From: Gemmatimonadales bacterium
GTDB taxonomy: Bacteria > Gemmatimonadota > Gemmatimonadetes > Gemmatimonadales > GWC2-71-9
Assembly: GCA_035997125.1 (NCBI GenBank)
Contig: DASYIX010000052.1
Coordinates: 5,752 to 69,751, forward strand
Direction: 5' to 3'
DNA: 64,000 nt
Positions 3,397 to 54,164 of the stretch are shown here, one piece after another; the stretch's first letter is position 1; each line of letters starts with the position of its first letter. Both the position numbers and the translations under genes were made by a program. A model generated the notes under the pieces. That model was not told the DNA's origin. It did no database searches and worked only from the letters and a program-made list of their open reading frames with translations.

Positions 3397-3428
3397 GGCG
3401 GTAAGGCGGTAGGGCGGTACGGCGGTAG
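3397..3428. repeat. tandem octamer array (GGCGGTAN) x4
   Basis: Read directly: GGCGGTAA GGCGGTAG GGCGGTAC GGCGGTAG. It lies between the dnaB stop (3394) and the radA ATG (3452). Confidence 0.9.
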
Positions 3429-3451
3429 CGTTGTCACCCTGAGCGCAGCGT

Positions 3452-4831
3452 ATGCCTAAGCCACGCTCAGTCTACCGCTGCACCGAGTGCGGGCACGAGC
3501 ATCCCAAGTGGGTGGGACGGTGCGAGGAGTGCAGCGCCTGGAATTCGGTGGCGGAGGAGCCGGTCGCGCTGGCGCGCGGCGGAAGAAGCGGAAAAGGCGG
3601 AAGAGGCGGTCGGGGTGGGTCCGCTCCTTCCGCTCCTTCCGCCATTCGACTCCGCGACGTCGCCGCCGAATCGCTCACTCGCTGGCAAACCGGCCTGCCG
3701 GAATTCGATTTCGTCCTCGGCGGAGGAATCGTCCCCGGCTCCATGACACTCATCGGGGGCGAGCCGGGAATCGGCAAATCGACGCTGCTGTTGCAGGCTG
3801 CTGCTCGCCTCGAGTCGGCCGGTCGCACGGTGCTCTATGCCAGCGGCGAGGAGTCCCCCGACCAGATCCGGCTCCGGGCCGACCGGCTGGTGGAAGATGC
3901 CGGCACGGTGCATGTGCTGGGCGAGACCCGGCTGGAAGCGATCATCGAGGCGGTGTCCGCAGTGCAGGCCGATGTCGTGGTGATCGATTCCATTCAGACG
4001 GTCTATACCGGAATGCTGGAGAGCGCGCCGGGCAACGTCGGGCAGGTGCGGGAATGCTCCGGCCAGCTGATGCGCTTTGCCAAGGACAGCGGCACCTCGG
4101 TGATTGTGGTGGGGCACGTGACCAAGGGTGGCGGCATCGCCGGACCCAAGACCCTGGAGCACATCGTTGACACGGTGTTGTACTTCGAGGGCGAGGCCAC
4201 TCTGGATTATCGCCTGCTGCGCACCACCAAGAACCGATTCGGCTCGGTGGACGAGCTCGGAGTCTTCTCCATGACCGAGAGCGGCCTGGTGGCGGTGCCC
4301 AACCCATCCGCGGTGTTTCTTGCTGCCCGATCCGACAAGACCAGTGGCAGCGCCGTCACCGCTCTTATGGAAGGCACCCGCCCGGTGCTGGTGGAGGTGC
4401 AGGCGCTCGCAGCGAAATCCGGGTACGGCACTCCCCAGCGGGTCGCGACCGGTCTGGATCCCCGCCGGCTCGCGGTCCTGCTCGCGGTGCTGGAGCGCCG
4501 AGCCCAGACCTCCTTCGCCGATCTCGACGTCTTCGTGCAGGTCACCGCCGGCGTGCGGCTCAACGAGCCCGGTGCCGACCTCGCGGTGGCGGCGGCGCTG
4601 CTGTCCAGTCTCCATAACCGGCCGGCCCCAGCCGACGTCATCTTCCTGGGCGAGATCGGATTGGGCGGTGAGATCCGGCCCAGCGGGGCGGTCGAGCGGC
4701 GGATTGCGGAGGCCGTGCGACTTGGCTTTCACCGGGTGTTTGGCTCCTCCCGCAGCCCGGTGCAGGTACCGGGCGCTTCGCTGGTGGGGCTGGATCATGT
4801 GGATCAGCTGGTGCGCGCGCTTGCCGCGTGA
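3452..4831 (+). CDS. radA: DNA repair protein RadA/Sms
   Basis: Zn ribbon CTECGHEHPKWVGRCEECSAWNS, Walker A GGEPGIGKST, KNRFG motif, Lon-like C-terminal domain. Confidence 0.95.
   Translation: MPKPRSVYRCTECGHEHPKWVGRCEECSAWNSVAEEPVALARGGRSGKGGRGGRGGSAPSAPSAIRLRDVAAESLTRWQTGLPEFDFVLGGGIVPGSMTLIGGEPGIGKSTLLLQAAARLESAGRTVLYASGEESPDQIRLRADRLVEDAGTVHVLGETRLEAIIEAVSAVQADVVVIDSIQTVYTGMLESAPGNVGQVRECSGQLMRFAKDSGTSVIVVGHVTKGGGIAGPKTLEHIVDTVLYFEGEATLDYRLLRTTKNRFGSVDELGVFSMTESGLVAVPNPSAVFLAARSDKTSGSAVTALMEGTRPVLVEVQALAAKSGYGTPQRVATGLDPRRLAVLLAVLERRAQTSFADLDVFVQVTAGVRLNEPGADLAVAAALLSSLHNRPAPADVIFLGEIGLGGEIRPSGAVERRIAEAVRLGFHRVFGSSRSPVQVPGASLVGLDHVDQLVRALAA
3578..3643. repeat. in-frame intragenic inverted tandem-repeat (nonamer units) inside radA linker
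   Basis: GGCGGAAGA AGCGGAAAA GGCGGAAGA GGCGG, an 11-nt loop, then CCGCTCCTT CCGCTCCTT CCGCC. Translated as GGRSGKGGRGGRGGSAPSAPSA. Confidence 0.85.
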
Positions 4832-5519
4832 TGTAGGTGCGATTGTAGTCGCTGCGGGGCGGGGCGCCCGATTCGGCAGCGAGACTCCCAAACAGTTTCA
4901 CCTCGTGGGCGGCGTGCCCATAGTGCTGCGAGCGCTGCGTTCCTTTACCTCCCACCCTGACGTGGCTCACGTGGTTTTGGTGCTGTCGGCCGAGCACGCG
5001 GCCCATCCTCCCGCCTTCCTCTCCGCCTTCTCCGCTCTCTCGCCGCTCTCCGTCGTTGCCGGAGGCACGCACCGAGGCGACTCGGTCCGGGCAGGCCTCG
5101 CCGCCCTGAATGCGGATTGCGGCGTGGTGCTGGTACACGATGGGGCGCGGCCGTTCGTGCAGCGCTCGCTGATCGATCGGGTGATCGAGTACGCCCGACA
5201 AGGCGAGGGCGCGGTGCCGGCGGTGCCACTGAGTGACACGCTGAAGGAAGTCGCTGGAGACGACCCCACGCGGATCGTGCGGACCCGGCCGCGTGCGCGG
5301 CTGTGGCGGGCGCAGACCCCCCAGGGATTCCCCCGCACAATTTTGGAAGCGGCTCATGCCCACGCGGCCCAGGTCGGACGCCGGGCTACCGACGATGCGG
5401 CCCTGGTCGAGGCCATGGGAGTGACAGTTCGGCTGATTCCTGACTCCAGCCGCAACATCAAGGTCACCACCCCCGAAGACCTGGCGCTGGCAGAAATGTT
5501 GGCCGCCGAGCCGCGATGA
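4797..5519 (+). CDS. ispD: 2-C-methyl-D-erythritol 4-phosphate cytidylyltransferase
   Basis: AIVVAAGRGARFG...PKQF N-terminus typical of IspD. The ORF track start at 4320 is an artefact inside radA. Start is ATG 4797 or, by N-terminal length, more likely TTG 4821. Confidence 0.85.
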   Translation: MWISWCARLPRDVGAIVVAAGRGARFGSETPKQFHLVGGVPIVLRALRSFTSHPDVAHVVLVLSAEHAAHPPAFLSAFSALSPLSVVAGGTHRGDSVRAGLAALNADCGVVLVHDGARPFVQRSLIDRVIEYARQGEGAVPAVPLSDTLKEVAGDDPTRIVRTRPRARLWRAQTPQGFPRTILEAAHAHAAQVGRRATDDAALVEAMGVTVRLIPDSSRNIKVTTPEDLALAEMLAAEPR

Positions 5520-6166
5520 TCCTGCCCTTTCGAACTGACAGCGAGGTGTTCGCTGCCATCCCGCAGGTGGGCCGGCACCTCCGGGCCAACAAATTGCTCG
5601 CGTACCCTACCGAAACGGTCTACGGCCTAGGCTCCGCCCCCACGATTCCGGCACTCGCCGCCTTGGCTCGGCTGAAGGGCCGTCCGGAAGGGAAGCCTTT
5701 CCTCCTTCTCATCTCGGGGCGGAAGATGGCGGAAGACTGGGGACTGGTGTTTACCCCCTCGGCCACCGCGCTGTCCGACGCGTTCTGGCCCGGTCCGCTG
5801 ACTCTGGTGCTCCCTGGCGGGGAAGGAAGGCTGCCCGACGAGCTGCGGGGCAGGGAAGGCGGGATCGCCGTGCGGCACACCTCGCATCCCGGCATTGCCC
5901 GACTGATCTCCTCGTTGGGCGGGCCGCTCACCTCGACGTCGGCCAATCGTCCGGGCGGCCCGCCTGCACCGGGTCCCGATCGCCTCATTGAGTTGTTCGG
6001 TCCGGAAGAACGGAACGGCGAGCTGCTCGTGCTCGACGGCGGCGTGCTCGGCAACGTGCCCCCGTCGACGCTGGTCGATTGCACCGGGGTGACGGCGCTG
6101 ATGGTTCGCGAAGGAGCGATACCGCGGGGAGAGCTGCGGCGAGCGGCGGGCAGGCTGGCACCATGA
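5516..6166 (+). CDS. tsaC: L-threonylcarbamoyladenylate synthase (YrdC/TsaC type, short form)
   Basis: 216 aa. YPTETVYGLG and TSTSANRPG motifs of the Sua5/YrdC family. ATGA overlap with the ispD stop. Confidence 0.8.
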   Translation: MILPFRTDSEVFAAIPQVGRHLRANKLLAYPTETVYGLGSAPTIPALAALARLKGRPEGKPFLLLISGRKMAEDWGLVFTPSATALSDAFWPGPLTLVLPGGEGRLPDELRGREGGIAVRHTSHPGIARLISSLGGPLTSTSANRPGGPPAPGPDRLIELFGPEERNGELLVLDGGVLGNVPPSTLVDCTGVTALMVREGAIPRGELRRAAGRLAP

Positions 6167-6170
6167 GAGC

Positions 6171-6265
6171 GGGGCAGCGCGGCAGCGGGGCAGTGAGGCG
6201 GTTGTCTGGCCAGCGAGAGCTGAGCCGGTGTGCTGTTGCTGCCCCGCCGCGCCGCCGCGCCGCTG
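6171..6265. repeat. imperfect inverted repeat built from GGGGCAGC-type octamers
   Basis: 5' arm GGGGCAGC GCGGCAGC GGGGCAGT GAGGCGGT (6171-6202). 3' arm GCTGTTGCTGCCCCGCCGCGCCGCCGCGCCGCTG (6232-6265) contains the reverse complement GCTGCCCC. Confidence 0.8.
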
Positions 6266-6278
6266 TTATCTTCTGAAA

Positions 6279-6737
6279 ATGCACGTTCTATTCGTCTGTA
6301 CCGGCAACACCTGCCGCAGTCCCATGGCCGAAGGGCTCCTGCGCGAGGCGCTCACTAACCGAGGCGCCGATCAGGTGACCGTGGCTTCCGCCGGCACCGG
6401 CGCCTGGGACGGGGCGCCGATATCGGAAGGCGCGTATCTGGTAGGACTGGAGCACGGTCTCGACCTCAGCGGGCATCGAGCCCGGCTGCTAACCCGGGAT
6501 CTGGTCAAGTCGGCCGATCTCATCCTGACCATGTCGGCCCATCATCGGGCGCGGGTGGCGGAATTGGGTGGTGAAGACAAGGCGCGGGTGCTCGGTGAGT
6601 ACGTCGGCCGGGACGAGTCCAGCGCGGAGGTCAGCGATCCGTTCGGGTCCGATCTGCCGAGCTACCGGCAGACCTACGAGGAATTGCAGGAGCTGATCGG
6701 GTTGTTGGTGAGCCGGCTGGCCGGCACCGTGCGGTGA
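6279..6737 (+). CDS. low-molecular-weight protein phosphatase (YwlE-like Tyr/Arg phosphatase)
   Basis: P-loop VLFVCTGNTCRSPMAEG at the N-terminus and an SDPF region. It follows a Sua5/YrdC gene, as ywlC-ywlE do in Bacillus. The track start at 6228 lies in the repeat. Confidence 0.8.
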   Translation: MHVLFVCTGNTCRSPMAEGLLREALTNRGADQVTVASAGTGAWDGAPISEGAYLVGLEHGLDLSGHRARLLTRDLVKSADLILTMSAHHRARVAELGGEDKARVLGEYVGRDESSAEVSDPFGSDLPSYRQTYEELQELIGLLVSRLAGTVR

Positions 6738-7537
6738 TCAGCGGCGGCTCCCGCGTCCTCGCCATCCTGGGCGATCCGGTCGCGCATTCTCTCTCTCCAA
6801 CCATGCAGAACGCCGCGTTCCGGGCCCTCGGATTGTCCGCGGTCTATGTTCCCTTGCGCTGCTCTGGCGAAGACTTACCGCTGCTGCTCCGCGCCCTCGC
6901 TCGAGCCGGAGGCGGCGGGAACATCACTGTCCCGCACAAAGAGGTTGCGGCGCGCTCGGTGGATACCTGCCGTGAGCTGGCGGAGACGGTTGAAGCCTGC
7001 AACACGTTCTGGAGCGAGAACGGCCGTACCGTGGGCGACAATACCGATGTCCCCGGCCTGGTCGAGGCGCTGCATCAGTTGGAGGTGTCGCGCGCGCCCT
7101 GGTTCATCGCCGGCACCGGCGGCGGGGCCCGGGCGGCCGTGGTGGCGGCGCGAGAATTCGGCGTGCCGGTCGCGGTCCGATCCCGGGACCGGGGGCGGCA
7201 GAGCCGGTTCGAGAGCTGGATCTCCTCCCGTGAGGTGGAGCTTGCGGCGCCCGCCGACTGTGGGGTGCTGATCAACTCGACCCCGCTCGGCCTCCACCCG
7301 GACGATCCTTTCCCCATTGAGCCTGACGGCTTTCCTCGCGCCGAGGTCGCCTTCGACATGGTGTACGCTCCGGGGCAAACCTCCTGGGTGCGCGAGATGA
7401 AATCCCGGGTCCGGCGAGCTGCCGACGGGCGTGCCATGCTCGTGGCCCAGGGCGCGGCTGCGTTCGAGCGCTGGTTCCCCGGCAAGCCCGCTCCGGTTGA
7501 GGTGATGCGAGCAGCGGTCGATGCTGCGCTTCGCTAA
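6734..7537 (+). CDS. aroE: shikimate dehydrogenase
   Basis: ILGDPVAHSLSPTMQNAAF N-terminus, NITVPHK, NTD..G motifs. GTGA overlap with the upstream stop. Confidence 0.85.
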   Translation: MISGGSRVLAILGDPVAHSLSPTMQNAAFRALGLSAVYVPLRCSGEDLPLLLRALARAGGGGNITVPHKEVAARSVDTCRELAETVEACNTFWSENGRTVGDNTDVPGLVEALHQLEVSRAPWFIAGTGGGARAAVVAAREFGVPVAVRSRDRGRQSRFESWISSREVELAAPADCGVLINSTPLGLHPDDPFPIEPDGFPRAEVAFDMVYAPGQTSWVREMKSRVRRAADGRAMLVAQGAAAFERWFPGKPAPVEVMRAAVDAALR

Positions 7538-8270
7538 TCCCGGCCGGCAAACCGGTCGCTCCGAAATCCTGGCGGGGATGGAACGCTGGCTACTTCCGGC
7601 CGCGTGTCTCCTCTGCGGCGAGCCGGTTCCAGAGCGTCAGGCCGACGCGCTCATCTGCGATCTCTGCCGGATCCGTTGGCGCCCGATCCCTCACCCGCTG
7701 TGCGGTCGCTGCGGCCAGCCCAGCTTGGGAGATCTCGCGTGTCGGCTCTGCGCCGAGTGGCCAGAAGGTCTCGCGCGGGTGCGCAGCGCGGTGTGGCTGG
7801 AAGGCTCGGCTCGGGACGCCGTCCATCGGCTCAAGTACGACGGTTGGACCCGCGCGTCCAAGGCAATGGCGGAGACGATGCGGTCGCTGGAGCCATTGAC
7901 CGGGCGGGTATCCTTGATACCGGTGCCGCTGGGCCGGCGCCGGCTGCGGCAACGAGGCTACAACCAGAGCGAGTGCCTGGCGCACGCGCTCGGCGGAGCG
8001 GTCGGGGCGCCGGTTCGAACCGATCTGCTCGGCCGAGTGCGGGAGACGCCCACTCAAACCGCCTTGACCCCGGAGGCGCGGCACGCCAACGTCGCCGGGG
8101 CGTTTCATGCCGGCGCGGTGCGGGGGTTGGAACTGGTCCTGGTGGACGATGTGTTTACCACTGGGGCAACCCTCGCCGCTGCTGGAGCGGCGCTGTCCGA
8201 AGCGGGGGCGGCGCGAGTGGAGGCAGTGACGTTTGCCCGTGCTGTGGTGGAGCTCGGAGTCGGAAGCTAG
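7521..8270 (+). CDS. comF: ComF family phosphoribosyltransferase-like protein
   Basis: N-terminal Cys pairs (CLLCG..CDLC, CGRCG..CRLC) and PRTase motif LVLVDDVFTTGATL. Alternative start at ATG 7578. Confidence 0.75.
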   Translation: MLRFANPGRQTGRSEILAGMERWLLPAACLLCGEPVPERQADALICDLCRIRWRPIPHPLCGRCGQPSLGDLACRLCAEWPEGLARVRSAVWLEGSARDAVHRLKYDGWTRASKAMAETMRSLEPLTGRVSLIPVPLGRRRLRQRGYNQSECLAHALGGAVGAPVRTDLLGRVRETPTQTALTPEARHANVAGAFHAGAVRGLELVLVDDVFTTGATLAAAGAALSEAGAARVEAVTFARAVVELGVGS

Positions 8271-8295
8271 GAGTCAGGAGACACTCCCAGCTTCC
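8262..8295. repeat. 12-bp stem hairpin spanning the comF stop, carrying GAGTCAGGAG
   Basis: GGAAGCTAGGAG (8262-8273) pairs with CTCCCAGCTTCC (8284-8295) with 1 mismatch. There is no T-tract. GAGTCAGGAG is at 8271-8280. Confidence 0.7.
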
Positions 8296-8302
8296 TAGCT
8301 GA

Positions 8303-10524
<2,222 letters not shown>

Positions 10525-10536
10525 TGAGCCCGTCTT

Positions 10537-11289
<753 letters not shown>

Positions 11290-11290
11290 T

Positions 11291-11413
11291 GCGCTATTGG
11301 CTATTCGCTATTAGCCATTGGCTAGCTCCTCATGCGGCCGTCCTCTGGGGATGACGTCGGAGTATCCACCTCTGGCAATAGCCAAGTAGCCAATAGCCAA
11401 TAGCCAATAGCGA
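11291..11413. repeat. 123-bp palindromic element made of CTATTGG / CCAATAG heptamers (MITE/REP-like)
   Basis: Left arm is CTATTGG CTATTCG CTATTAG CCATTGG (11294-11321). Right arm is CAATAGCCAAGTAGCCAATAGCCAATAGCCAATAGCG (11376-11412). The core is about 50 nt, and the element is visibly less GC-rich than its flanks. Confidence 0.85.
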
Positions 11414-11423
11414 ACAGCCCCTC

Positions 11424-12308
11424 ATGCCTGAGCTCCCCGACATCACCCTGTACCTCCAGCAACTCGCCCCTCGAATCCTCAACCAGCCCCTGGTCCACAT
11501 CACCCTCAAGAATCCGTTCATCCTCCGCTCGGTTGATCCTCCGATCTCCCAGCTGGAGGGGAAGCGGGTGCTTGGCCTCAGCCGGATGGGCAAGCGGATC
11601 GTGATGGCGTTCGAAGCCGATCTGTTTCTGGTGCTTCATCTCATGATCGCGGGACGGCTCCGCTGGCGCGAGCTGGGTGCCAAGGCGGGTGGCAAGCTGG
11701 TGGTTGCGGTTTTGGAATTTCCTCACGGTGCCATGCATTTCACCGAAGCCGGGTCCAAGCGGCGCGCATCCATGCATCTCGTGGCCGGTTCCGAGCGTCT
11801 TCGCGAGTTCGACCGGGCCGGACTCGAGGTATTGGAGGCCGACGAGGCGGCGTTCGCTCAGCGGCTGATCTCGGAAAGCCATACCCTAAAGCGCGCGCTC
11901 ACCGATCCCCGGCTCTTCAGTGGGATCGGCAATGCTTACTCGGACGAGATCCTGCACCGCGCCCGGCTGTCCCCGCTGGCGCTCACGGGGAAACTCACCG
12001 CTGCTGAGATCGCGACGCTGTACCAGGCCACTCGCGCGACCTTGCAGGACTGGATCGATCGGCTGAGCCGGGAGACGGGCGACGCCTTTCCCGAGAAGGT
12101 CACCGCCTTTCGCGAGGGGATGGCCGTGCACGGCCGGTACGGCAAGCCATGCCCCGAGTGCGGCTCTCCGGTACAGCGGATTCGCTACGCCGACAACGAG
12201 ACCAACTACTGCGCTCGGTGCCAGACCGGCGGACGTCTGCTGGCAGACCGGGCGTTGTCCCGGCTCTTGAAGAAGGACTGGCCGCGTTCGATTGATGAGC
12301 TGGAGTGA
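11424..12308 (+). CDS. Fpg/Nei family DNA glycosylase / AP lyase
   Basis: N-terminal MPELPD (catalytic Pro2/Glu3), an H2TH region, and a C-terminal zinc finger CPECGSPVQRIRYADNETNYCARCQ. Confidence 0.85.
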   Translation: MPELPDITLYLQQLAPRILNQPLVHITLKNPFILRSVDPPISQLEGKRVLGLSRMGKRIVMAFEADLFLVLHLMIAGRLRWRELGAKAGGKLVVAVLEFPHGAMHFTEAGSKRRASMHLVAGSERLREFDRAGLEVLEADEAAFAQRLISESHTLKRALTDPRLFSGIGNAYSDEILHRARLSPLALTGKLTAAEIATLYQATRATLQDWIDRLSRETGDAFPEKVTAFREGMAVHGRYGKPCPECGSPVQRIRYADNETNYCARCQTGGRLLADRALSRLLKKDWPRSIDELE

Positions 12309-12311
12309 CTC

Positions 12312-12340
12312 TCGACTTTCGTCACCGTCCCCGCTAAACT
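12312..12340 (+). promoter_or_regulatory. possible sigma-70-type promoter for secG
   Basis: TCGACT, 17 nt spacer, TAAACT. The -10 ends 10 nt before the secG ATG, so the leader is very short. Confidence 0.3.
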
Positions 12341-12350
12341 GCACGCCACT

Positions 12351-12818
12351 ATGTTCGGATTTCTCGTCTCGCTTCTCATTCTCGACGCCCTCCTGCTCTC
12401 GGTCGTGGTGTTGCTCCAGGCCGGTCAGGGCGGGGGACTCGCCTCGCTCGGTGGCGGCGGCACGGACACCGTGCTCGGCGGCCGCCAGGCGGTGACCATC
12501 CTGACCAAGCTGACCTGGTGGTGCGGCGGGATCTTCCTGGTGCTCTCCCTGGCGCTCTCGCTCACGCCGCGGGGCGGCAATTCCAGCGCGCTGCAGGAGA
12601 AGCTTCGGGCCGCAACTCCCGCTGCTCCGAGCCAGGCTCCGCTTCCCCTGGGACCGGCGGCCGAGCCATCCGCGGAAACGCCAAAGGGACCGGCTCCGCT
12701 CCCCTTGGGGACTCCGACCCAGCCTGCTGGCAAGGCTCCAACCGGGGCCGCTCCTGCCGCGCCGAAGCCGACGCCGGCGCCGGCTCAGAAGCCGTCCACT
12801 CAACCACCGAAAAAGTGA
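12351..12818 (+). CDS. secG: preprotein translocase subunit SecG with Pro/Ala-rich C-terminal extension
   Basis: [37 protein letters not shown] is a typical SecG N-terminus, followed by a second TM segment. Residues 72-155 are low-complexity P/A-rich. Confidence 0.85.
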
Positions 12819-13972
12819 GAGGGCCGGAGAGCGGGGTCGGTGATCGCCCCGCTTTCGTGTTGCTGGAGGACGGTACCTGGTTCGCCGGCAGCAGCCGGCG
12901 CGCGCTCAGTCCGGCGTTCGGTGAGGTCGTGTTCACCACCAACCTGACCGGCTATCAGGAGACCTTCACCGATCCGAGTTATCTCGGGCAAATCGTGGTG
13001 ATGACGGCTCCCATGATCGGCAACTACGGCGTCAATGAAGAGGACATGGAGTCGGCTCACCCGCAGGTGAGCGGCGTGGTCGTGCGCGAGCTGTCCCGGC
13101 ATTCTTCGAACTGGCGGGCCACCCGCACGCTGGATGAGTGGCTCGCCGCTTCGGCGGTGCCCGCGATCGAGGGGATCGACACCCGCCGCCTGACCCGCCA
13201 CCTGCGAGAGCGCGGCGCCATGCGCGGGGTCATAGCCGAGGGGACCGAGCCGACGCCGGCCTTGTCGGCTCGGCTCCTCGCGTCTCCGTCGATGGAGGGA
13301 CTGGATCTGGCCTCGCGGGCCACTGTCGGCGCGGCGCGCAGCGAAGGTTCGGGCCCCCACGTCGTCGCCTACGATTTCGGGATGAAGCGCAACATCGTAA
13401 GAAGGCTGGTGGGTGCGGGCTGTCGGGTGACGGTGGTCCCGTCGACCACGCCCGCTGCTGCGGTGCGGGAGCTAAAGCCCGATGGGCTCTTTCTTTCCAA
13501 CGGGCCCGGCGATCCCGCCGCGGTGGGATACGCGCTGAGCACGATTCGCGAGCTGGCGGACGCGGGCCTGCCCACCTTCGGCATCTGTCTCGGCCACCAG
13601 CTCATCGGGCTCGCCTATGGCGGCACCACCGCCAAGATGCCCTATGGCCATCGGGGCGGCAATCATCCGGTGCGGGACGTCCGGACCGATCAGGTCCTGA
13701 TCACCACTCAAAACCATGGCTTCGCGGTGGTTGGAGATGAGCGTGGTATTCCCGGAGCAGCGTCACTCCAGGTGACCCACCTGAATCTGAACGATGGAAC
13801 TATCGAGGGAATTCGGCATCGCGAGCTGCCTCTCTTCGCCGTGCAATACCATCCCGAGGCCGCTCCCGGTCCCCATGACGCGCTCCCCCACTTTGCCGAA
13901 TTCATGGAGTTGCTTGGTGTCGGGCCGGTATTAGATCGGCAACCCCTTGACAGACAAGGGTTAAGCTCGTAG
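12815..13972 (+). CDS. carA: carbamoyl-phosphate synthase small (glutaminase) subunit
   Basis: [33 protein letters not shown] motifs. GTG 12815 overlaps the secG stop (GTGA). The track start at 12518 lies inside secG. Confidence 0.92.
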
Positions 13973-13975
13973 TAT
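13947..13975 (+). promoter_or_regulatory. sigma-70-type promoter for hup, embedded in the carA 3' end
   Basis: TTGACA (13947-13952), 17 nt spacer, TAGTAT (13970-13975). The -35 overlaps a small hairpin CCCTTG-acaga-CAAGGG (13944-13960). Confidence 0.6.
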
Positions 13976-14028
13976 CGGCCATTGGTGGTCCTCCCTGCGC
14001 ACGCTGTCATAACCCTCCTGGGGGATGC

Positions 14029-14358
14029 ATGACCAAGGCAGATCTCGTCGAACAGGTGACCGCCTCCATCGCCCGGACGGCCGGTCCCATGATCTCGAAG
14101 AAGGACTGCGCCCGCGTGGTCGACGCCTTCCTGGAGGCAGTGAAGGAAGCGCTCAAGCAGCAGCACAACATCGAAGTGCGCGGTTTTGGGACCTTCAAAA
14201 TCCGCCGGCGTAAGACCCGCATGGCGCGGAACCCGCGCACCGGAGATCCAGTGGAGGTAGCCGCGCGTCCTGTGCCGGTATTCAAGCCCAGCAAAGAGTT
14301 ACGGGCGTTGGTGGCGGACGAGACCGGGTCCGAAGCGGAGCCTGCGCAGGGGATGTAG
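14029..14358 (+). CDS. hup: HU/IHF family nucleoid-associated DNA-binding protein
   Basis: 109 aa. MTKADLVEQV, GFGTFKIRRRKTRMARNPRTGDPVEVAARPVPVFKPSKEL (beta-arm signature). Confidence 0.9.
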   Translation: MTKADLVEQVTASIARTAGPMISKKDCARVVDAFLEAVKEALKQQHNIEVRGFGTFKIRRRKTRMARNPRTGDPVEVAARPVPVFKPSKELRALVADETGSEAEPAQGM

Positions 14359-14390
14359 CTCCGCCCGAGTGCTGCATCACAGATGAAACC

Positions 14391-14435
14391 GAGGTCGCCC
14401 CGGGCATCATCCCCCAGGGCGGCCTCACCTTTTTT
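14391..14435 (+). terminator. rho-independent terminator after hup
   Basis: GAGGTCGCCC (14391-14400) pairs with GGGCGGCCTC (14417-14426) with one G-U pair, plus an inner GGG/CCC extension. It is followed by ACC and a TTTTTT run (14430-14435). Confidence 0.8.
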
Positions 14436-14513
14436 CGGACTCCTGCTGTTTCCGTCCCTGGCGTCCGGCGGTAACTTTCACTAATGCCAAATGCTACCGT
14501 CTCGACCGTAACA

Positions 14514-14750
14514 ATGCGCGTCCTCCTGTTTGCGAGCTACGCGGAGACCCTGGGCTTCGATTCCGTCGAAATGACCCTGGACTCCCCGGCGACGGTGGGC
14601 GATGCGCTGGAGCGGCTGAGGGGATTGCCCGGAGGCGAGAACCTTCCTCCCCGGCCGCTCTGTGCGCTCAACCTTTCGCAGGCGACGGTGAACGATCCGC
14701 TCTCCGGCGGGGACGAGCTGGCCGTGCTTCCACCGCTGGCCGGAGGTTGA
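14514..14750 (+). CDS. moaD: molybdopterin synthase sulfur-carrier subunit
   Basis: MRVLLFASYAETLG N-terminus and C-terminal GG, the ThiS/MoaD fold signature. The ORF opens at 14484, but ATG 14514 gives the canonical N-terminus. Confidence 0.85.
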   Translation: MRVLLFASYAETLGFDSVEMTLDSPATVGDALERLRGLPGGENLPPRPLCALNLSQATVNDPLSGGDELAVLPPLAGG

Positions 14751-15187
14751 GCGTGGCTTACCTCACTTCCGAGCCGGTCGCCCTCGGTCCGTTGCTGGAG
14801 TCGGTCCAGTCGCCCTCGCGGGGAGGCGTGGCATGCTTTCTCGGCACCGTGCGCAATCACCATGGCGGCCGCGAGGTGCTCCGGCTCGACTACTCGGCGT
14901 ACGCTCCCATGGCGGAAGCGGAGCTTGCCCGGATCGTGGCCGAGGCAGAGTCGCGCTGGGACGTGGCCGTCGCGGTTCGACACCGTATCGGCAGTCTGGA
15001 GATCGGTGATGCTGCGGTTGCGGTCGCCGTGGCTGCCGGTCACCGGGATGAGTCCTTCGTGGCCTGCCGCTTCGTCATCGAAGAGGTGAAGCGGCGGGTA
15101 CCCATCTGGAAGAAGGAGTACTTCGCCGACGGGACGGTGGAATGGGTAGGGGCAGCGGGGCAGCGGGGCAGCGGGGCAGTGGTATGA
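14747..15187 (+). CDS. moaE: molybdopterin synthase catalytic subunit
   Basis: 146 aa. G..V.F.G.VRN, VPIWKKEYF motif. Positioned between moaD and moaA. The last 12 codons are encoded by the GGGGCAGC array. Confidence 0.85.
   Translation: MSVAYLTSEPVALGPLLESVQSPSRGGVACFLGTVRNHHGGREVLRLDYSAYAPMAEAELARIVAEAESRWDVAVAVRHRIGSLEIGDAAVAVAVAAGHRDESFVACRFVIEEVKRRVPIWKKEYFADGTVEWVGAAGQRGSGAVV
15149..15180. repeat. tandem octamer array (GGGGCAGC) x3 + GGGGCAGT; G-quadruplex-type motif
   Basis: Read directly as GGGG-CAGC repeated. It lies on the sense strand and ends 4 nt before the moaA ATG (15184), inside the moaE 3' end. Confidence 0.9.
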
Positions 15188-16200
15188 TCGACTTGCTCGG
15201 TCGCCCTCTGAGAAGCCTGCGGATCTCCGTAACCGACCGCTGCAATATGCGCTGCCGTTACTGCATGCCGGAGCAGGATTACGTCTGGCTCCCGCGGGCG
15301 TCTATTCTCTCCTTCGAAGAAATCGATCGCCTGGTCGGCATCTTCACGGGACTGGGCGTGCAGAAGCTGCGGCTCACGGGGGGCGAGCCCCTCCTGCGGC
15401 ACGAGCTGCCCAAGCTGGTAGCTCTCGTGCGCCGGCATCCTCAATTGCGCGACATCGCGCTCACCACCAACGGTATCCTGCTGGCTCGGCACGCCGGGGA
15501 GCTGCGCCAAGCCGGCCTCGATCGGGTGACGGTGAGCCTCGATACGCTCCGCGCCGAGCGGATGCTGGAGTTCGCCCGGAGCGCCAAGCATGGCGACGTC
15601 CTGGACGGAATTGCGGCGGCCCAGGCGGCGGGCTTCGGGGCCATCAAGCTCAATGTGGTGGTGATCCGGGGCTACAACGACGACGAGCTGGTCGATCTGG
15701 TGGAGTTCGGCCGGCGTCAGGGCGCCGAGGTGCGCTTCATCGAGTATATGGACGTGGGTGGGGCGACCGAGTGGTCGAGCGCTCAGGTGGTGAGCCAGCG
15801 CGAAATCCTGGCACTGCTGGGCCGCCGCTACGGACGGATCGAGCCAGTCGGTCAGCCGGACTCGGCTCCGGCGGAGCGGTTTGCACTTCTGGACGGAACG
15901 GTGTTTGGGGTCATCGCTTCCACCACGGCTCCCTTCTGCCGGACCTGCGACCGCAGCCGGCTTACGGCAGACGGCACCTGGCTCCTCTGCTTGTACGGCG
16001 AGAACGGCCTCGACTTGCGCGAGGCGCTGCGAGACGGCTCCAGCGATGAATTAATTGCCGCCCGGGTCGCGCAACGATGGAGCGCCCGCACCGACCGAGG
16101 CGCCGAGGAACGGGCCCGGGCTCCCGACCGGGGTGCGTTGTACCAACTGGAGTCTCTCCGTGCCGATCCGCACCGGGAGATGCACACCCGGGGCGGGTGA
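15184..16200 (+). CDS. moaA: GTP 3',8-cyclase (radical SAM)
   Basis: LRISVTDRCNMRCRYCMP (CX3CX2C) and a C-terminal CRTCDRSRLTADG cluster. ATGA overlap with the moaE stop. Confidence 0.93.
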   Translation: MIDLLGRPLRSLRISVTDRCNMRCRYCMPEQDYVWLPRASILSFEEIDRLVGIFTGLGVQKLRLTGGEPLLRHELPKLVALVRRHPQLRDIALTTNGILLARHAGELRQAGLDRVTVSLDTLRAERMLEFARSAKHGDVLDGIAAAQAAGFGAIKLNVVVIRGYNDDELVDLVEFGRRQGAEVRFIEYMDVGGATEWSSAQVVSQREILALLGRRYGRIEPVGQPDSAPAERFALLDGTVFGVIASTTAPFCRTCDRSRLTADGTWLLCLYGENGLDLREALRDGSSDELIAARVAQRWSARTDRGAEERARAPDRGALYQLESLRADPHREMHTRGG

Positions 16201-16718
16201 TGGCGCTTAATATCGCGCTGATCCAGCCTCAGATTCCTCCCAACACCGGCAACATCGCCCGCCTGTGCGTCGCGACCGATACGCCCCTTCATCTCATTGA
16301 GCCGCTCGGCTTCTCTATCACAGATGCCGAGGTGCGCCGCGCCGGCCTGGATTATTGGGATCGTCTGGACCTCTGGGTTCATCCCGACTGGTTTGCGTTT
16401 CGTGACGCGATCAATCGTAGCCGCTGTCTCTACTTCTCGGCCAAGGCGACGCAGAGCTATCTCACCGCACCGTATCGCCCGAATAGCTGCCTGGTGTTCG
16501 GGAGTGAAACCGAGGGGATGCCGCTGCGGATCCTGGAGAAGCACCCCGAGCAGTGCTACACGATTCCCATGACCGGCTCGGTACGGAGTCTGAATCTGGC
16601 GAACGCGGTGAGCATTGTGCTGTACGAGGCTCTCCGGCAGACGGGTCGGGAGTCGGGCGTCGTGAGTCAGGAATCGGGAAGTTCATCTGGCGACTTACTC
16701 CAGACTCCAGACTCCTGA
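16200..16718 (+). CDS. trmL: tRNA (cytidine/uridine-2'-O)-methyltransferase, SpoU/TrmL type
   Basis: IALIQPQIPPNTGNIARLC, LVFGSETEG, SLNLANAVSIVLYEA. The C-terminal ~24 aa are encoded by a repeat hairpin. Confidence 0.85.
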   Translation: MALNIALIQPQIPPNTGNIARLCVATDTPLHLIEPLGFSITDAEVRRAGLDYWDRLDLWVHPDWFAFRDAINRSRCLYFSAKATQSYLTAPYRPNSCLVFGSETEGMPLRILEKHPEQCYTIPMTGSVRSLNLANAVSIVLYEALRQTGRESGVVSQESGSSSGDLLQTPDS

Positions 16719-16724
16719 CTCCCG
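16648..16724. repeat. inverted tandem heptamer element forming the trmL 3' end
   Basis: 5' arm GGGAGTC GGGCGTC GTGAGTC AGGAATC GGGAAGT. 3' arm ACTCCAG ACTCCAG ACTCCTG ACTCCCG. The perfect 9-bp core is GAGTCAGGA (16664-16672) / TCCTGACTC (16713-16721). Confidence 0.85.
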
Positions 16725-16786
16725 GCTATATTGCGGCGGCCTAAGTCCAGGCTCCTCACTCAAGTTGAAATAGCGAGAACGACTGC

Positions 16787-26439: not shown

Positions 26440-26446
26440 GAGCTCA

Positions 26447-26610
26447 GGGGGCAGCGGGGCGGGTACCCGCCTGCGGGTGGATGGGCGGCGGGGCAGGGGT
26501 GCCCGGCAGCCTGAATCGGGGCGGAATATAGTAGGTATAGTAGCCGACATTCAGGCTGAGCTCTCCCAGAGTTTTTGCTGCCCCGGCGCCCTGCGCCCCC
26601 GCTGCCCACC
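26447..26610. repeat. nested G-rich / C-rich inverted repeat region (GGGGCAGC-type) in the dcd-nuoA divergent spacer
   Basis: G-tract arm 26447-26511 (GGGGGCAGCGGGGCGGGTACCC...GGCGGGGCAGGGG). Complementary C-tract arm 26577-26610 (GCTGCCCCGGCGCCCTGCGCCCCCGCTGCCC). Confidence 0.8.
26507..26558. repeat. perfect 10-bp inverted repeat enclosing a TATAGTAG direct repeat
   Basis: CAGCCTGAAT (26507-26516) and ATTCAGGCTG (26549-26558). Inside are TATAGTAG (26527-26534), a G, then TATAGTAG (26536-26543). Confidence 0.9.
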
Positions 26611-40734: not shown

Positions 40735-40747
40735 GGGGGAGGCGGCC

Positions 40748-42148
40748 ATGAATGTTCCCAAGTCCATCTTCAGACAGTACGATGTCCGCGGCCTGGTGGA
40801 TCGGGAGCTCACCCCGGAATTTTCCCGGGCGCTGGGTCGGGCCTTTGCCACCGTGGCCTATGATCGGCTGGGCCATGCGCCGGTGATCGCGGTCGGACGG
40901 GACAACCGGCCCTCGGGTCCTGCTCTGGCTCAGGGAATTCGTCGCGGCATTGCCGACGCAGGAGGGACCGCAATCGACGTGGGCACCCTGCCGACGCCGG
41001 CGCTGTACTTTGCCGTCTCGGCATTGGGGACCGACGGAGGGCTTCAGGTAACCGGCTCGCACAATCCACCGGAGTTCAACGGTTTCAAGATGGTGCTCGC
41101 CGGCGAGGCTTTCCACGGCGACGACATCCTCGGTCTCTGGGAGATCATCGTGGCTGAGCGGTGGCGGTCGGGCGCAGGCAAGGAAGGCTCCGACGGCTCG
41201 GTGCTCCAGCGTTACCGCGATGGCATCATCAGCCGCCACCAGCTCGAGCGACCTGTGCGGGTGGTAGTCGACTGCGGCAATGGGGCAGGCAGTCTGATCG
41301 CCGTGTCCACCCTCCAGGGCCTCGGGGCCGAAGTGACGCCCCTGTTCTGCGAGTCCGACGGGACGTTCCCCAACCATCATCCTGATCCCACCGTGCCGGA
41401 GAATCTGCGAGATCTGCAAGTCGCGGTGCGGCGGGGCGGCGCCGAGCTGGGCATTGCCTTCGACGGCGATGCCGACCGGATCGGGGCGGTCGACGAGACC
41501 GGCGAGATCATCTACGGCGATCAACTTCTGGTGATCTTCGGAAGGGACGCGGTCCGCCGCTTCGGCCGGGGCACACCGGTGATCTTCGACGTGAAGTGTT
41601 CCGAGGTCCTACCCTCGGCGCTTACCGCCGCCGGCGCAAAGCCCGTCATGTGGAAGACGGGTCACTCCCTCATCAAGGCCAAGATGAAGGAGCTCAAGGC
41701 GCCGTTGGCCGGCGAAATGAGCGGGCACATGTTCTTCGGGGGCGACTACCTCGGGTTCGATGACGCTGTGTTTGCTGCGGCCCGGCTGCTTGAGATCGTC
41801 AGCCGCCAGCCCTTCGGGTTGTCGCCGCTTCTGGCCGACCTGCCGAAGACCTTTGCCACGCCGGAGATCCGGGTGGAGTGCCCGGAGGATGAGAAGTTCG
41901 ACCTGGTAGAGCGAGCCGCGGTCCACTTCGCCACCAAGTATCCAGTCAACACCATCGATGGCGTGCGGATCACCTTTCTCAAGGGGTGGGGACTCCTCCG
42001 AGCCTCGAACACCCAGCCGGTGCTCGTCATGCGATTCGAGGCCACCGACCTGCAGTCGCGCGATGCTTACCAGGCCGAGGTAGACGACTGGCTGGAAAAA
42101 CAGAAGAGCGCCAGCGAGGTCGAGAAGACGGTGAGCGGTAAGCGGTGA
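40748..42148 (+). CDS. phosphomannomutase / phosphoglucomutase (alpha-D-phosphohexomutase)
   Basis: Active-site TGSHNPPEFNGFK, metal loop FDGDADR, GEMSGH sugar-binding loop. Confidence 0.9.
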   Translation: MNVPKSIFRQYDVRGLVDRELTPEFSRALGRAFATVAYDRLGHAPVIAVGRDNRPSGPALAQGIRRGIADAGGTAIDVGTLPTPALYFAVSALGTDGGLQVTGSHNPPEFNGFKMVLAGEAFHGDDILGLWEIIVAERWRSGAGKEGSDGSVLQRYRDGIISRHQLERPVRVVVDCGNGAGSLIAVSTLQGLGAEVTPLFCESDGTFPNHHPDPTVPENLRDLQVAVRRGGAELGIAFDGDADRIGAVDETGEIIYGDQLLVIFGRDAVRRFGRGTPVIFDVKCSEVLPSALTAAGAKPVMWKTGHSLIKAKMKELKAPLAGEMSGHMFFGGDYLGFDDAVFAAARLLEIVSRQPFGLSPLLADLPKTFATPEIRVECPEDEKFDLVERAAVHFATKYPVNTIDGVRITFLKGWGLLRASNTQPVLVMRFEATDLQSRDAYQAEVDDWLEKQKSASEVEKTVSGKR

Positions 42149-42157
42149 ACCGCTCAC
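42131..42157. repeat. 9-bp perfect hairpin spanning the pmm stop codon
   Basis: GTGAGCGGT (42131-42139) and ACCGCTCAC (42149-42157). The 9-nt loop contains the TGA stop. The sequence reads as GAGCGGTA AGCGGTGA ACCGCTCA. Confidence 0.8.
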
Positions 42158-42171
42158 GCTGCTAGGCCAGG

Positions 42172-44625: not shown

Positions 44626-44665
44626 GCTTGCTCCTCTCCGGGGCGCGGACTAGCTTGGAGGGCTT

Positions 44666-48087: not shown

Positions 48088-48102
48088 GCCGAATATTGTT
48101 GC

Positions 48103-48131: not shown

Positions 48132-48139
48132 AAGCGGCT

Positions 48140-48616: not shown

Positions 48617-48623
48617 GGAAACC

Positions 48624-48806
48624 ATGGCAGTCCCCAAGCGTCGGACGTCGAAATCCCGGAAGCGCCTGCGGCGCGGCCATCACAGCGCGGCGGGCCCCCG
48701 AACCCAGGCGTGTCCGCGGTGCGGCTCTCCCAAACTCTCGCATCACGTCTGCGATTCGTGCGGGTATTACCGGGGGAAGAAGCAGGTCGAGGTCGAGGAC
48801 GTCTGA
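48624..48806 (+). CDS. rpmF: 50S ribosomal protein L32
   Basis: [20 protein letters not shown] and the zinc-ribbon Cys pairs CPRCG...CDSCG. Confidence 0.95.
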
Positions 48807-48808
48807 GC

Positions 48809-51755: not shown

Positions 51756-52492
51756 CTGCCATTGATCTCTCGGGGAAGGCCGCGTTCGTCACCGGCAGCA
51801 CCCGCGGCATCGGCCTCGCAATCGCCCAGGCGCTCCATGGTGCCGGGGCCAAGGTGGCCGTCGTCGGCCGGGATCTCGCACGCGCGCGCGCGGTTGCCTC
51901 CGGCCTTGGCCCCCGGGCCGCCGGAGTTGCTTGTGACGTGGCTCAGTCCGACCAGGTTGAGGCCGGCATCGGCGCGGCCGAAGCGGCGCTCGGACCGATC
52001 GATATCCTGGTCAATAACGCGGGACTCACCCGCGACAACATTCTGCTGCGGCTAACCGAGGACGATTGGGATACCGTGCTGGACGCCAATTTGAAGGGCG
52101 CCTTTCACACGACCAGGGCAACGATCAAGGGAATGATGAAGCGGCGAGCCGGCCGCATCATCAATATCACCAGCATCGTAGGCTTGACTGGCAACAAGGG
52201 CCAGGCCAACTACGCCGCGAGCAAGGCGGGACTTATCGGGTTCACCAAGTCGGTCGCGAAGGAGTACGCCAGCCGGAATATCCTGGCCAATTGCATCGCC
52301 CCAGGCTTCATCGAGACCGATATGACGGCCTCCTTGCCCGATGCAGCGCGAGCCTCATTATTAGAGCAGATCGCGCTGGGCCGCCTGGGCCGGCCCGAGG
52401 ACGTCGCAGGGGCCGTGCTGTTTCTGGCTTCCGATCTGGCGGGATACATTACTGGCCAGGTCCTGGTAGTTGACGGTGGAATGGTGATCTGA
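51752..52492 (+). CDS. fabG: 3-oxoacyl-ACP reductase
   Basis: VTGSTRGIGLAIA, NNAG, YAASKAG, and the tail GQVLVVDGGM. Confidence 0.93.
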   Translation: MTAIDLSGKAAFVTGSTRGIGLAIAQALHGAGAKVAVVGRDLARARAVASGLGPRAAGVACDVAQSDQVEAGIGAAEAALGPIDILVNNAGLTRDNILLRLTEDDWDTVLDANLKGAFHTTRATIKGMMKRRAGRIINITSIVGLTGNKGQANYAASKAGLIGFTKSVAKEYASRNILANCIAPGFIETDMTASLPDAARASLLEQIALGRLGRPEDVAGAVLFLASDLAGYITGQVLVVDGGMVI

Positions 52493-52522
52493 GGCGGACC
52501 GCAATCTTCAATCGAGGGCGAC

Positions 52523-52762
52523 ATGGCAAACGTGGAAGAGAAGGTCAAAGATATCATCGTCGAAGAGCTCGGGGTCGAGCGCGAGAAGCTGACCAGCGAC
52601 GCCAGCTTCATGGAAGACCTCGGCGCCGATAGCCTCGATACCGTCGAGCTGGTCATGGCATTCGAGAAGGAGTTCGACATCGATATCCCCGACGAGGAGG
52701 CGGAGAAGCTTCGCACCGTCGGCGATGCCATGTCCTATCTCCATGAGAAAATCGGAAAATAG
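52523..52762 (+). CDS. acpP: acyl carrier protein
   Basis: 79 aa. [17 protein letters not shown] phosphopantetheine site. Confidence 0.97.
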
Positions 52763-52763
52763 G

Positions 52764-54005
52764 TTGACCCACCGTGTCGTCGTCACCGGCCTCGGGCTGG
52801 TGACACCCGTCGGAACCGACGTCGAATCGACCTGGCAGGGGCTGCTCGCCGGCCGCTCCGGCGCGGCCCCGATCACCAAGTTCGACGCCTCCAATCAGCA
52901 GGTCCGCTTTGCCTGCGAGGTGAAGGGGTTCGATCCGCTGCAGTACATCGACAAGAAGGAAGCCCGCCGGTACGATCTGTTTGCCCAGCTCGCCATCGCC
53001 GCCGCTCACCAGGCCATCACCCAGGCCGGCCTCGAGGGGCAATTCCCCTCGCCGGAGCGCACCGGCGTCGTCATTGGCAGCGGCATCGGCGGCATGCAGA
53101 CCTACGAAGAGAACTGCAGGCTCTATGTCACCAAGGGGCCGGACCGGGTCTCGCCCTTCTTCGTCCCGATGTTCATCCCCGACATCGCGGCTGGCCTGGT
53201 CTCCATCCGCTTTGGGCTGAAAGGCCCCAATTTCGCCACGGTGTCGGCCTGTGCATCCTCGGCACATGCCATCGGCGAATCATTCAACATGATCCGCCAC
53301 GGCGCCGCGGATGCCATGGTGAGCGGCGGATCGGAGGGCGCAATCACCGGGCTCACCGTCGCGGCGTTCGCCAACATGAAGGCGCTGTCCACCCGCAACG
53401 ATTCCCCCCAGACGGCTAGCCGGCCCTTCGACAAGGACCGCGATGGGTTCGTGCTGGGGGACGGCGGCGCCATAGTGGTGCTGGAGAGCCTGGAGCACGC
53501 GGAGCGGCGGGGCGCGCGAATCCTGGGCGAGGTGCTGGGCTATGGGCTGAGCGGGGATGCATACCACATCACGTCGCCGGCTGAAGACGGTGAAGGGGCC
53601 CAGCGCGCCATTCGCAGCTGCCTCGACGACGGCAAGATCGACCTCAAGGACGTGGGCTACATCAACGCCCATGGTACGTCCACGCCGCAAGGCGATATCG
53701 CGGAGACCAGAGCGGTCAAGGCGGTCTTCGGTGAGCAGGCGCGTAAGCTGGTTTTCGGGTCGACCAAGTCCATGACCGGTCACCTCCTTGGCGGCGCCGG
53801 CGCGCTCGAATTCGTCGTGTCGCTGCTGGCCTCCACCTGCGGTGTCATCCCACCCACCATCAACCAGTTCACTCCCGACCCCGAGTGCGACCTCAACTCC
53901 GCGCCAAACCGTAAAGTGGAGCGTCGAGTGGATGTCGCGCTTTCTAACTCCTTCGGCTTCGGCGGCCACAACGTCACCCTCGCGGTGCGCCGCTGGGAGA
54001 CGTAG
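52764..54005 (+). CDS. fabF: 3-oxoacyl-ACP synthase II
   Basis: RVVVTGLG, ACASSAHAI, HGTSTPQGD, GHLLGGAG, FGFGGHN. TTG 52764 gives the canonical N-terminal length. Alternative ATG 52743 overlaps acpP. Confidence 0.93.
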   Translation: MTHRVVVTGLGLVTPVGTDVESTWQGLLAGRSGAAPITKFDASNQQVRFACEVKGFDPLQYIDKKEARRYDLFAQLAIAAAHQAITQAGLEGQFPSPERTGVVIGSGIGGMQTYEENCRLYVTKGPDRVSPFFVPMFIPDIAAGLVSIRFGLKGPNFATVSACASSAHAIGESFNMIRHGAADAMVSGGSEGAITGLTVAAFANMKALSTRNDSPQTASRPFDKDRDGFVLGDGGAIVVLESLEHAERRGARILGEVLGYGLSGDAYHITSPAEDGEGAQRAIRSCLDDGKIDLKDVGYINAHGTSTPQGDIAETRAVKAVFGEQARKLVFGSTKSMTGHLLGGAGALEFVVSLLASTCGVIPPTINQFTPDPECDLNSAPNRKVERRVDVALSNSFGFGGHNVTLAVRRWET

Positions 54006-54164
54006 TAAACATCGCGTCCTTGTGTCTGAGTCCCACCTGACGTCCCCTCCTCCCATCGCTAACTCATAGCTCACCTCCCGGAACGCTGGGTGGTGGGGTA
54101 GCTGCGACCATTATAAGTTTCCTCGAGTCAGGAGCTGTTACTTTCTCCAGTTCAAGGAGATACG

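Follow-up and report, generated by a model that had tools for sequence, protein, structure and literature searches.

The window analysed here, 64,000 nt of contig DASYIX010000052.1 from a Gemmatimonadales soil bacterium, has a G+C content of 65% and encodes a PGK that is 71% identical to the PGK of a Gemmatimonadales metagenome-assembled genome (MAG). Its 2-18 kb region is a co-directional block of housekeeping genes, dnaB-radA-ispD-sua5-ptp-aroE-comF-gap-pgk-tpiA-fpg-secG-carA-hu-moaD-moaE-moaA-trmL-mdh, and at junctions of this block, in part also within its reading frames, several head-to-tail copies of a short unit are followed by copies of the reverse-complementary unit. An earlier note on this DNA had described these arrays, and the sequences it quoted were all found where it had placed them. 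The arrays and their partner arms are the following, the degenerate and marginal cases included:

3396-3428, plus strand: dnaB/radA one-armed array, GGCGGTAN x4, period 8
3578-3609, plus strand: radA linker 5' arm, GGCGGAAGA x3.6, period 9, reading frame kept
3620-3645, plus strand: radA linker 3' arm, TCCGCTCCT x2.6-2.9
6168-6193, plus strand: sua5/ptp 5' arm, GGGGCAGC-type x3.2
6239-6265, plus strand: sua5/ptp 3' arm, GCTGCCCC / GCCGCGCC units, 14 nt from the arm end to the ptp ATG (6280)
8262-8295, plus strand: small hairpin at the comF stop, spanning TAG 8268-8270, two GGAGTC units
11291-11325, plus strand: tpiA/fpg 5' arm, GCTATTG x4.6, period 7
11372-11419, plus strand: tpiA/fpg 3' arm, CAATAGC x6.1, arm end 4 nt before the fpg ATG (11424)
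12307-12330, plus strand: probable post-fpg remnant, GACTCTC GACTTTC, weak, seen by eye
15149-15180, plus strand: moaE/moaA one-armed array, GGGGCAGC x4, in the last 13 moaE codons
16645-16679, plus strand: trmL-end 5' arm, GGGAGTC-type x5, period 7, translated
16697-16724, plus strand: trmL-end 3' arm, ACTCCAG x3.7, holding the trmL stop TGA (16716-16718)
26448-26497, plus strand: dcd-side G-rich arm, degenerate GGGGCAGC-type, adjoining the dcd start (minus strand, 26439)
26577-26608, plus strand: nuoA-side C-rich arm, degenerate GCTGCCCC-type, ~68 nt upstream of the nuoA ATG (26677)
42131-42157, plus strand: marginal, a pair of AGCGGTNA units with a 9-bp stem across the stop of a phosphoglucosamine-mutase-like gene

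The layout of tandem units followed by inverted copies is real and non-random. Arrays were searched with Tandem Repeats Finder at periods 6-10, a score of at least 40 defining a strong array and 100 dinucleotide shuffles of the window serving as control, as the earlier note had proposed. The window holds 17 arrays (shuffle mean 3.3), 11 of which are strong (shuffle mean 0.13). Arrays with reverse-complementary units no more than 250 nt apart were counted as inverted pairs, and there are four of them (3578/3620, 6168/6244, 11293/11376 and 16645/16697), compared with none in the 100 shuffles; no other inverted repeat in the 64 kb is as long as these four. Folded as RNA, the segments 11280-11425 (tpiA/fpg), 16640-16735 (trmL end) and 6155-6280 (sua5/ptp) reached z scores of -6.7, -4.2 and -3.9, respectively, with weaker values for 26440-26589 (-2.3), the comF-stop hairpin (-2.2), 3555-3665 in the radA linker (-2.0) and 42120-42165 (-1.6). 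At 3397 and 15149 the one-armed arrays, though genuine, do not fold (z +0.4 and +1.3). Three independent JGI metagenome contigs match the window at 99.9% over 6614-16425 with no indels, demonstrating that the arrays are not assembly artefacts. A scan of the whole window against Rfam 15 at the gathering score gave no matches.

Some of the claims made for these loci had to be narrowed. Of the six two-armed loci originally listed, those at 3578, 6171, 11291 and 16648 hold, whereas 42131-42157 taken alone is not above chance and 26447-26610 is degenerate, with two units per arm that are detected only if 2-3 mismatches are allowed. The range had been given as 3397-54134; however, all clean loci lie within 3.4-16.8 kb, and inspection of the spacer at ~54.0-54.16 kb revealed no array. 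That each locus has a different unit was an overstatement, since GGGGCAGC recurs at three loci (6171, 15149 and 26448), and a GGCGGTA-type unit occurs both at 3397 and at 42131; a small set of units is reused within this genome and in relatives. The CCTCTCCGC array at 5018-5052, with 74% matches and located within the IspD domain, was set aside as coding low complexity outside this class.

As the earlier note had stated, the arrays abut stop codons or fill spacers. At dnaB/radA the array begins 2 nt past the dnaB stop (3392-3394), the radA ATG following at 3452. The sua5/ptp stem has the sua5 stop TGA (6164-6166) as part of its base and stops 10 nt short of the ptp ATG, and the tpiA/fpg stem, whose 5' arm begins 2 nt past the tpiA stop (11287-11289), stops 2 nt short of the fpg ATG. 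Three nucleotides separate the end of the moaE/moaA array from the moaA ATG (15184), whose overlap with the moaE stop gives ATGA; the sense strand of the array is a perfect G4N4G4N4G4N4G4 quadruplex motif. Translation in frame, which had been claimed for three loci, was found at all of them. The radA arrays correspond to linker residues ~43-64, which follow the Zn ribbon (residues 8-35) and precede the ATPase domain that begins at residue 82; MoaE ends in ...VGAAGQRGSGAVV*, the last 13 residues being array-encoded; and TrmL acquires ~22 aa by reading through both arms to the TGA in the 3' arm, with the homology of relatives' TrmL stopping at the array start.

For comparison we used a genome scan of 8 Gemmatimonadota loci and 72 loci of other phyla (pgk neighbourhoods) and a metagenome scan of 80 syntenic contigs from the same Gemmatimonadota family (TIM 72-81% identical, 446 kb in total); individual loci and contigs are cited below by L numbers. 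The strong arrays in the 446 kb are almost equally of period 7 (n=33) and period 8 (n=30), all other periods together contributing 7, and relative to Markov controls the excess is limited to periods 7 and 8 at 2.5-4.5 copies. The copy number has its mode at 4 (44 of 74 arrays), and two-armed loci have a median arm of 28 nt and a median loop of 43 nt (range 7-128 nt).

In the spacers of relatives, which the earlier note had suggested aligning, the same junctions are occupied and the architecture is kept; many relatives are entirely without arrays at these positions. Re-occupied in relatives are dnaB/radA, the radA linker, sua5/ptp, comF/gap, tpiA/fpg, moaE/moaA and trmL/mdh, to which fpg/secG is added, and across the family each junction maintains its period and a related, drifting unit family. 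Thus, the unit 3' of tpiA is GCTATTG in the window, L087 and L092, GCTATGG in L096 and GCTCATA in L100 and L111, and the locus takes one-armed (L111), compact two-armed (7-nt loop, L087) and long-looped forms. Among the 34 tpiA/fpg spacers listed, 26 are short (4-44 nt) and lack an array, and the long spacers of L097 and L108 contain other inserted sequence instead. No homology, forward or inverted, was detectable between the loops of orthologous hairpins. The two junctions that are one-armed in the window are two-armed elsewhere, dnaB/radA in L108 (GGCGGTAC x3.8 / TACCGCCG x4) and moaE/moaA in L099, L131, L088, L112 and L124. At comF/gap, L092 carries GGAGTCA / TGACTCC arrays, and the hairpin at the comF stop of the window is a reduced form of this locus. 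Likewise, 12307-12330 is probably, on weak sequence resemblance, a decayed remnant of the AGTCGCN heptamer array found after the fpg stop in relatives. In most relatives the radA linker contains GGCGG- or GGGGCAGC-type period-8 arrays, down to 58-67% protein identity, and these are often poorly paired. The array-encoded peptide GAAGQRG of MoaE also occurs in the RadA linkers of L093, L110 and L131.

The sua5/ptp junction provides a view of both states. In more distant Gemmatimonadales sua5 and ptp overlap as ATGA or lie a few nt apart, which makes the ~113-nt spacer of the window an insertion. Within the family the junction is occupied by hairpins of 8-mer or of 7-mer units, by a remnant with one unit, or by an insert of 500 nt, and the GTTATCTTCTGAAAATG trailing the 3' arm is kept in L092, L093, L129 and L131. 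On the shortest time scale the arrays are stable, as contig pairs that are 99.4-99.97% identical showed no gaps, indicating that they are not hypermutable contingency loci. Phase-variation simple-sequence repeats (SSRs) were therefore ruled out; the neighbouring genes, too, are housekeeping genes. The mean distance between 8-mer units is 1.71 for other junctions of the same genome, 1.83 for the same junction of other genomes and 2.30 if neither is shared, in a small, hand-curated comparison (permutation p ~0.03 and ~0.02). These distances suggest vertical inheritance plus some homogenisation within genomes.

In a number of relatives the junctions accommodate small genes. A 23S_rRNA_IVP / bAvd-like four-helix-bundle gene (PF05635, E 1e-33 to 1e-37) is located at fpg/secG in L099 (2417-2917), L116 (3600-4097) and L112 (6300-6900), and also in L114, L120, L122 and L097. 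A small open reading frame (ORF) of the GIY-YIG type is found in L108 (4324-4819) and L125 (2174-2691), bracketed by GTCACCCTGA...TCAGGGTGAC inverted repeats. The window itself contains an exact GTCACCCTGAGCGCAGCG fragment at 3433-3450, between the GGCGGTAN array and the radA start, and related TCATCCTGAGCG(T/C)AGCGAAGGA motifs are present in the comF/gap and tpiA/fpg spacers of L084, L088, L092, L113 and L116. Several relatives have 2-6 kb of other DNA inserted after tpiA. The position of fpg between tpiA and secG (window 11424-12308) is itself restricted to this family, being found in the window and most of L084-L163, and fpg is absent from that position in the distant Gemmatimonadales L004-L010.

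The arms have a defined polarity. The G-rich arm is the 5' arm in 32 of 33 two-armed loci (p = 8e-9), the G-rich array comes first in all four pairs of the window, and in other phyla G-first loci outnumber C-first loci by 10 to 3. As an inverted repeat reads alike on both strands, the polarity cannot result from the direction of replication or transcription. The gene-bearing cassettes of relatives have the opposite order (C-rich array, gene, G-rich array), and a rule formulated relative to the genes on their sense strand, namely C-rich just before a start and G-rich just after a stop, fits all cases. Taken within 50 bp, G-after-stop and C-before-start also holds, the few exceptions adjoining inserted cassettes.

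Similar arrays were found outside Gemmatimonadota, period 7 being the commonest class in the 72 pgk neighbourhoods from other phyla. The tandem-then-inverted layout, with AT-richer heptamers, occurs in L049 (a Rhodothermales MAG), L063 (Pyrinomonadaceae), L073, L035 and L040 (Deinococcus phoenicis), L049 alone having 5 inverted array pairs in 21 kb.

Mismatches between the two arms (n=122) allow the RNA level and the DNA level to be compared. G:U pairing in the sense RNA is compatible with 28 of them and in the antisense RNA (A:C) with 30, i.e. there is no sense-RNA bias. Permuting the order of units gave no signal for variant units being mirrored between arms (mean z 0.06, at low power), and L087 is the sole perfect mirror (18 bp). 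Because the mismatches are strand-symmetric and variant units are uncompensated between arms, the sequences argue against selection on the sense RNA at the level of base pairs and favour homogenisation at the level of units. A selected RNA structure, one of the roles the earlier note had considered, thus finds no support in the mismatch spectrum.

We regard it as probable, at somewhat better than even confidence, that the loci are chromosomal long SSRs with 7-8 nt units in ~4 copies, paired convergently at gene junctions, having originated at the DNA level and owing their orientation to a filter imposed by expression. Arrays would originate, and be homogenised, through slippage of 7-8 nt units during replication, and the partner arm would arise, and remain alike, through intrastrand template switching or recombination of the inverted arrays with each other. 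Arm-to-arm conversion would occur at permissive operon junctions as a DNA-level process involving no mobile element, and slippage or template switching, which the earlier note had put forward, is the most economical reading of the origin. Each junction has its own vertically inherited array, whose unit drifts in concert across the copies and both arms, and decay or loss of an arm leads to the one-armed arrays. The outcome in polycistronic mRNA would be stop-to-start stem-loops with ~28-bp stems, which may affect processing, stability or translational coupling. Selection based on expression would then filter the surviving arrays: before starts only the orientation free of Shine-Dalgarno-like and GTG motifs would be tolerated, and after stops only the one that does not expose C-rich RNA resembling Rho-loading (rut) sites, resulting in 'G-rich after stop, C-rich before start'.

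Several points weigh against this account. Arrays of 2 copies show no excess over Markov controls in the relatives, the plateau being at 3-4 copies, and this argues against a simple birth-death process by slippage, which should decay from 2 copies. Template switching predicts mirrored variants, and these were found only in L087, not generally. Unit families are shared between junctions and somewhat genome-specific, which is not predicted by a purely local origin, and in relatives the arrays flank replaceable gene cassettes. The expression constraints behind the polarity are only something we infer, and the sequence examined amounts to ~0.5 Mb around one syntenic region.

Stems that begin at a stop codon and end 2-25 nt short of the next start, with arms of ~28 nt, i.e. 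longer than two helical turns, and z scores of -3.9 to -6.7 could also be selected RNA elements that serve RNase III processing, protect the 3' end of the upstream cistron or couple translation by masking the downstream start until a ribosome melts the stem. That junctions stay occupied at divergences at which the loops are already randomised fits such a role, and so do the inverted arrays bracketing the 23S_rRNA_IVP gene in relatives, a family that in 23S rRNA is located in the loop of a stem excised by RNase III. Nevertheless, we consider this possible but unlikely, as G:U-compatible mismatches are not biased to the sense strand (28 vs 30), changes in the units of one arm are not matched by compensating changes in the other, and in many close relatives the corresponding junction lacks a hairpin; in addition, one-armed arrays fail to fold, three loci are translated, and the polarity is strand-symmetric. 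Intrinsic (Rho-independent) terminators or attenuators, which the GC-rich stems right after stop codons might suggest and which the earlier note had also named, are extremely improbable: no T-run follows the hairpins, a promoter/terminator consensus scan of 1-20 kb flagged none of the loci, and direct reading likewise found no U-tract 3' of a stem. Moreover, the loops span 26-73 nt, and the genes on either side of the hairpins overlap or are closely coupled in relatives. A canonical intrinsic terminator lies after hu (14391-14435; a 10+3 bp GC-rich stem, then T6), showing that this genome uses ordinary terminators, which look unlike the tandem-unit hairpins.

The gene cassettes of the relatives raise a different explanation, in which the arrays are mobile or recombining DNA, either as termini or attachment sites of small cassettes or as MITE-like elements, and the short hairpins are empty sites or scars. 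This would account for the insertion of ~113 nt at sua5/ptp, a junction that is an ATGA overlap in other relatives, for the GIY-YIG ORF within the sua5/ptp hairpin loop of L108 and L125, for the 23S_rRNA_IVP gene lying between inverted heptamer arrays at fpg/secG in either orientation (2 plus, 5 minus), and for unit families shared by several junctions; a comparison of L112 with L116, which are 91% identical in the flanks, shows that the 23S_rRNA_IVP gene has been replaced together with the array units. We nevertheless find it decidedly unlikely, since there is neither a common full-length consensus nor a target-site duplication, the loops are unrelated, each junction keeps to one period and one family of units, a transposase is lacking, and both cassette genes, 23S_rRNA_IVP and GIY-YIG, are absent from the window; short-loop loci being G-first and cassette flanks C-first, the hairpins are not simple excision scars. 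Quite improbable is also a broader version in which the arrays, rather than being passive products of slippage, are functional components of a chromosomal cassette system: small selfish genes (in the relatives the 23S_rRNA_IVP / Avd-like four-helix-bundle gene and the GIY-YIG gene) would use the junction-specific arrays for recombination, integration or inversion, or an end-extending activity would write them. If true, it would account for features that local slippage leaves unaccounted for, namely the sharply defined size of ~4 x 7-8 nt, the polarity relative to genes, the units being in part specific to a genome, and the fpg/secG cassette that can be replaced and inverted. Finally, as has been held for GGGNATC repeats, four G-tracts per arm might be selected for G-quadruplex (G4) or i-motif formation in DNA or RNA, considering the four-unit mode, the perfect motif at 15149-15180, the GGG or GGGG in about half of the unit families and the G4 formed in vitro by Xanthomonas units (PMC4692102). 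This is very improbable, however, as the ~4-copy architecture also exists without any G-run, with CTATTGG in the window and GGCGACT, GACGACT, GTGAAAC and GCTCATA in relatives, and as duplex formation with the partner arm would compete.

The arrays, which the earlier note had not recognised as a described family, match the long SSR class, above all the convergent pairs of G-rich heptamer arrays in Xanthomonas and Nostoc, and are a Gemmatimonadota variant of this known, poorly understood class of repeats. The GGGAATC arrays of Xanthomonas and the GGGGA(C/T)T arrays of Nostoc (Rehm et al. 2015; PMC4692102) prefer four units and have a strong intergenic bias, with 70-75 convergent pairs per Xanthomonas genome forming an inverted repeat with the G-rich arm first. 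They lie with the G-rich strand as sense no more than 50 bp after a stop, or as antisense no more than 50 bp upstream of an ORF; related species share the junctions while length and sequence vary widely, and neither a link to insertion sequences nor a function was found (PMC4692102). The convergent pairs, the four-unit preference, the position rule and the shared but varying junctions all recur here. Unlike the Rehm et al. genomes with their one dominant unit, the window has at least five families in 64 kb (GGGGCAGC, GGCGGTAN, GGCGGAAGA, GGGAGTC and CTATTGG), half of the arrays are octamers, several units are unable to form G4, three loci are translated in frame, and the phylum is Gemmatimonadota. 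A dominant G4-forming GGGNATC unit is lacking, only GGGAGTC resembling it. The new features are thus that one genome holds several families of units, that units can be octamers and that arrays are translated in frame.

Long prokaryotic SSRs in general (Mrazek, Guo and Shah 2007, PNAS; summary in PMC4679880) have units of 5-11 nt with heptanucleotides being most abundant, are scattered phylogenetically and prefer multiples of three within genes, polymerase slippage having been proposed as their origin. Inverted pairing, polarity and junction-specific inheritance do not appear in that summary (PMC4679880). In accordance with the class, heptamers are abundant in our arrays and the sole 9-nt array is intragenic (radA). 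The cyanobacterial STRR heptamers, reportedly described by Mazel et al. in 1990, likewise comprise several heptamer families per genome. Both these and the Beggiatoaceae TAACTGA repeats resemble our arrays as tandem heptamers of 2-6 copies that are almost all intergenic and near start codons. The Beggiatoaceae repeats differ in being direct repeats (1/170 inverted) of one dominant unit, oriented to the downstream gene (PMC4679880).

REPs follow one consensus throughout a genome, marked by a GTAG or CGTC tag, and rely on a RAYT transposase (PMC3733652, PMC3116915). The hairpins share with REP, BIME and REPIN elements that they are intergenic imperfect palindromes within operons for which roles in mRNA stability have been proposed. 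This assignment was nonetheless rejected, as the 64-kb window contains no shared consensus palindrome of 20-40 nt, the arms differ by locus and consist of tandem units, and the loops are unrelated; no RAYT (TnpA_REP) was present among the 20 of ~60 window genes run against Pfam. MITEs were rejected as well, the sua5/ptp insertion having no target-site duplication and the loci no shared internal sequence, and the earlier conclusion that the loci follow no single REP or MITE consensus is upheld. Rickettsia palindromic elements are said, after Ogata et al. 2000, to be translated in frame inside housekeeping proteins. They differ from our arrays, being dispersed copies of one consensus of ~100-150 bp and not locus-specific tandem units. 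We found no literature on such repeats in Gemmatimonadota, and a 2025 survey of short tandem repeats makes no reference to heptamers.

Heptamer and octamer arrays are among the most over-represented features of many bacterial genomes, and the family studied here provides a comparative series at fixed housekeeping junctions, from no array through one arm and two arms to a cassette-bearing locus. In this series it is the architecture that persists rather than the sequence, G4 formation cannot be the general explanation, and polarity follows a gene-relative rule across phyla. The series also demonstrates that arrays can be absorbed into proteins (RadA linker, MoaE tail, TrmL tail). In three Gemmatimonadales MAGs (L005:8769-8835, L004:8797-8829 and L007:8749-8777), heptamer arrays lie in frame within a variable loop of ComF, that of L005 being a full TGCGGAA / TTCCGCA hairpin; comF of the window has no array at that loop.

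For annotation, the arrays explain odd C-terminal extensions and mis-called starts such as that of moaA. The public call on the JGI contig L001, which is 99.97% identical to the window, places this start at 15265, 81 nt late, thereby cutting off the conserved LRISVTDRCNMRCRYCMP radical-SAM motif; most likely moaA (15184-16200) starts at the ATG at 15184.

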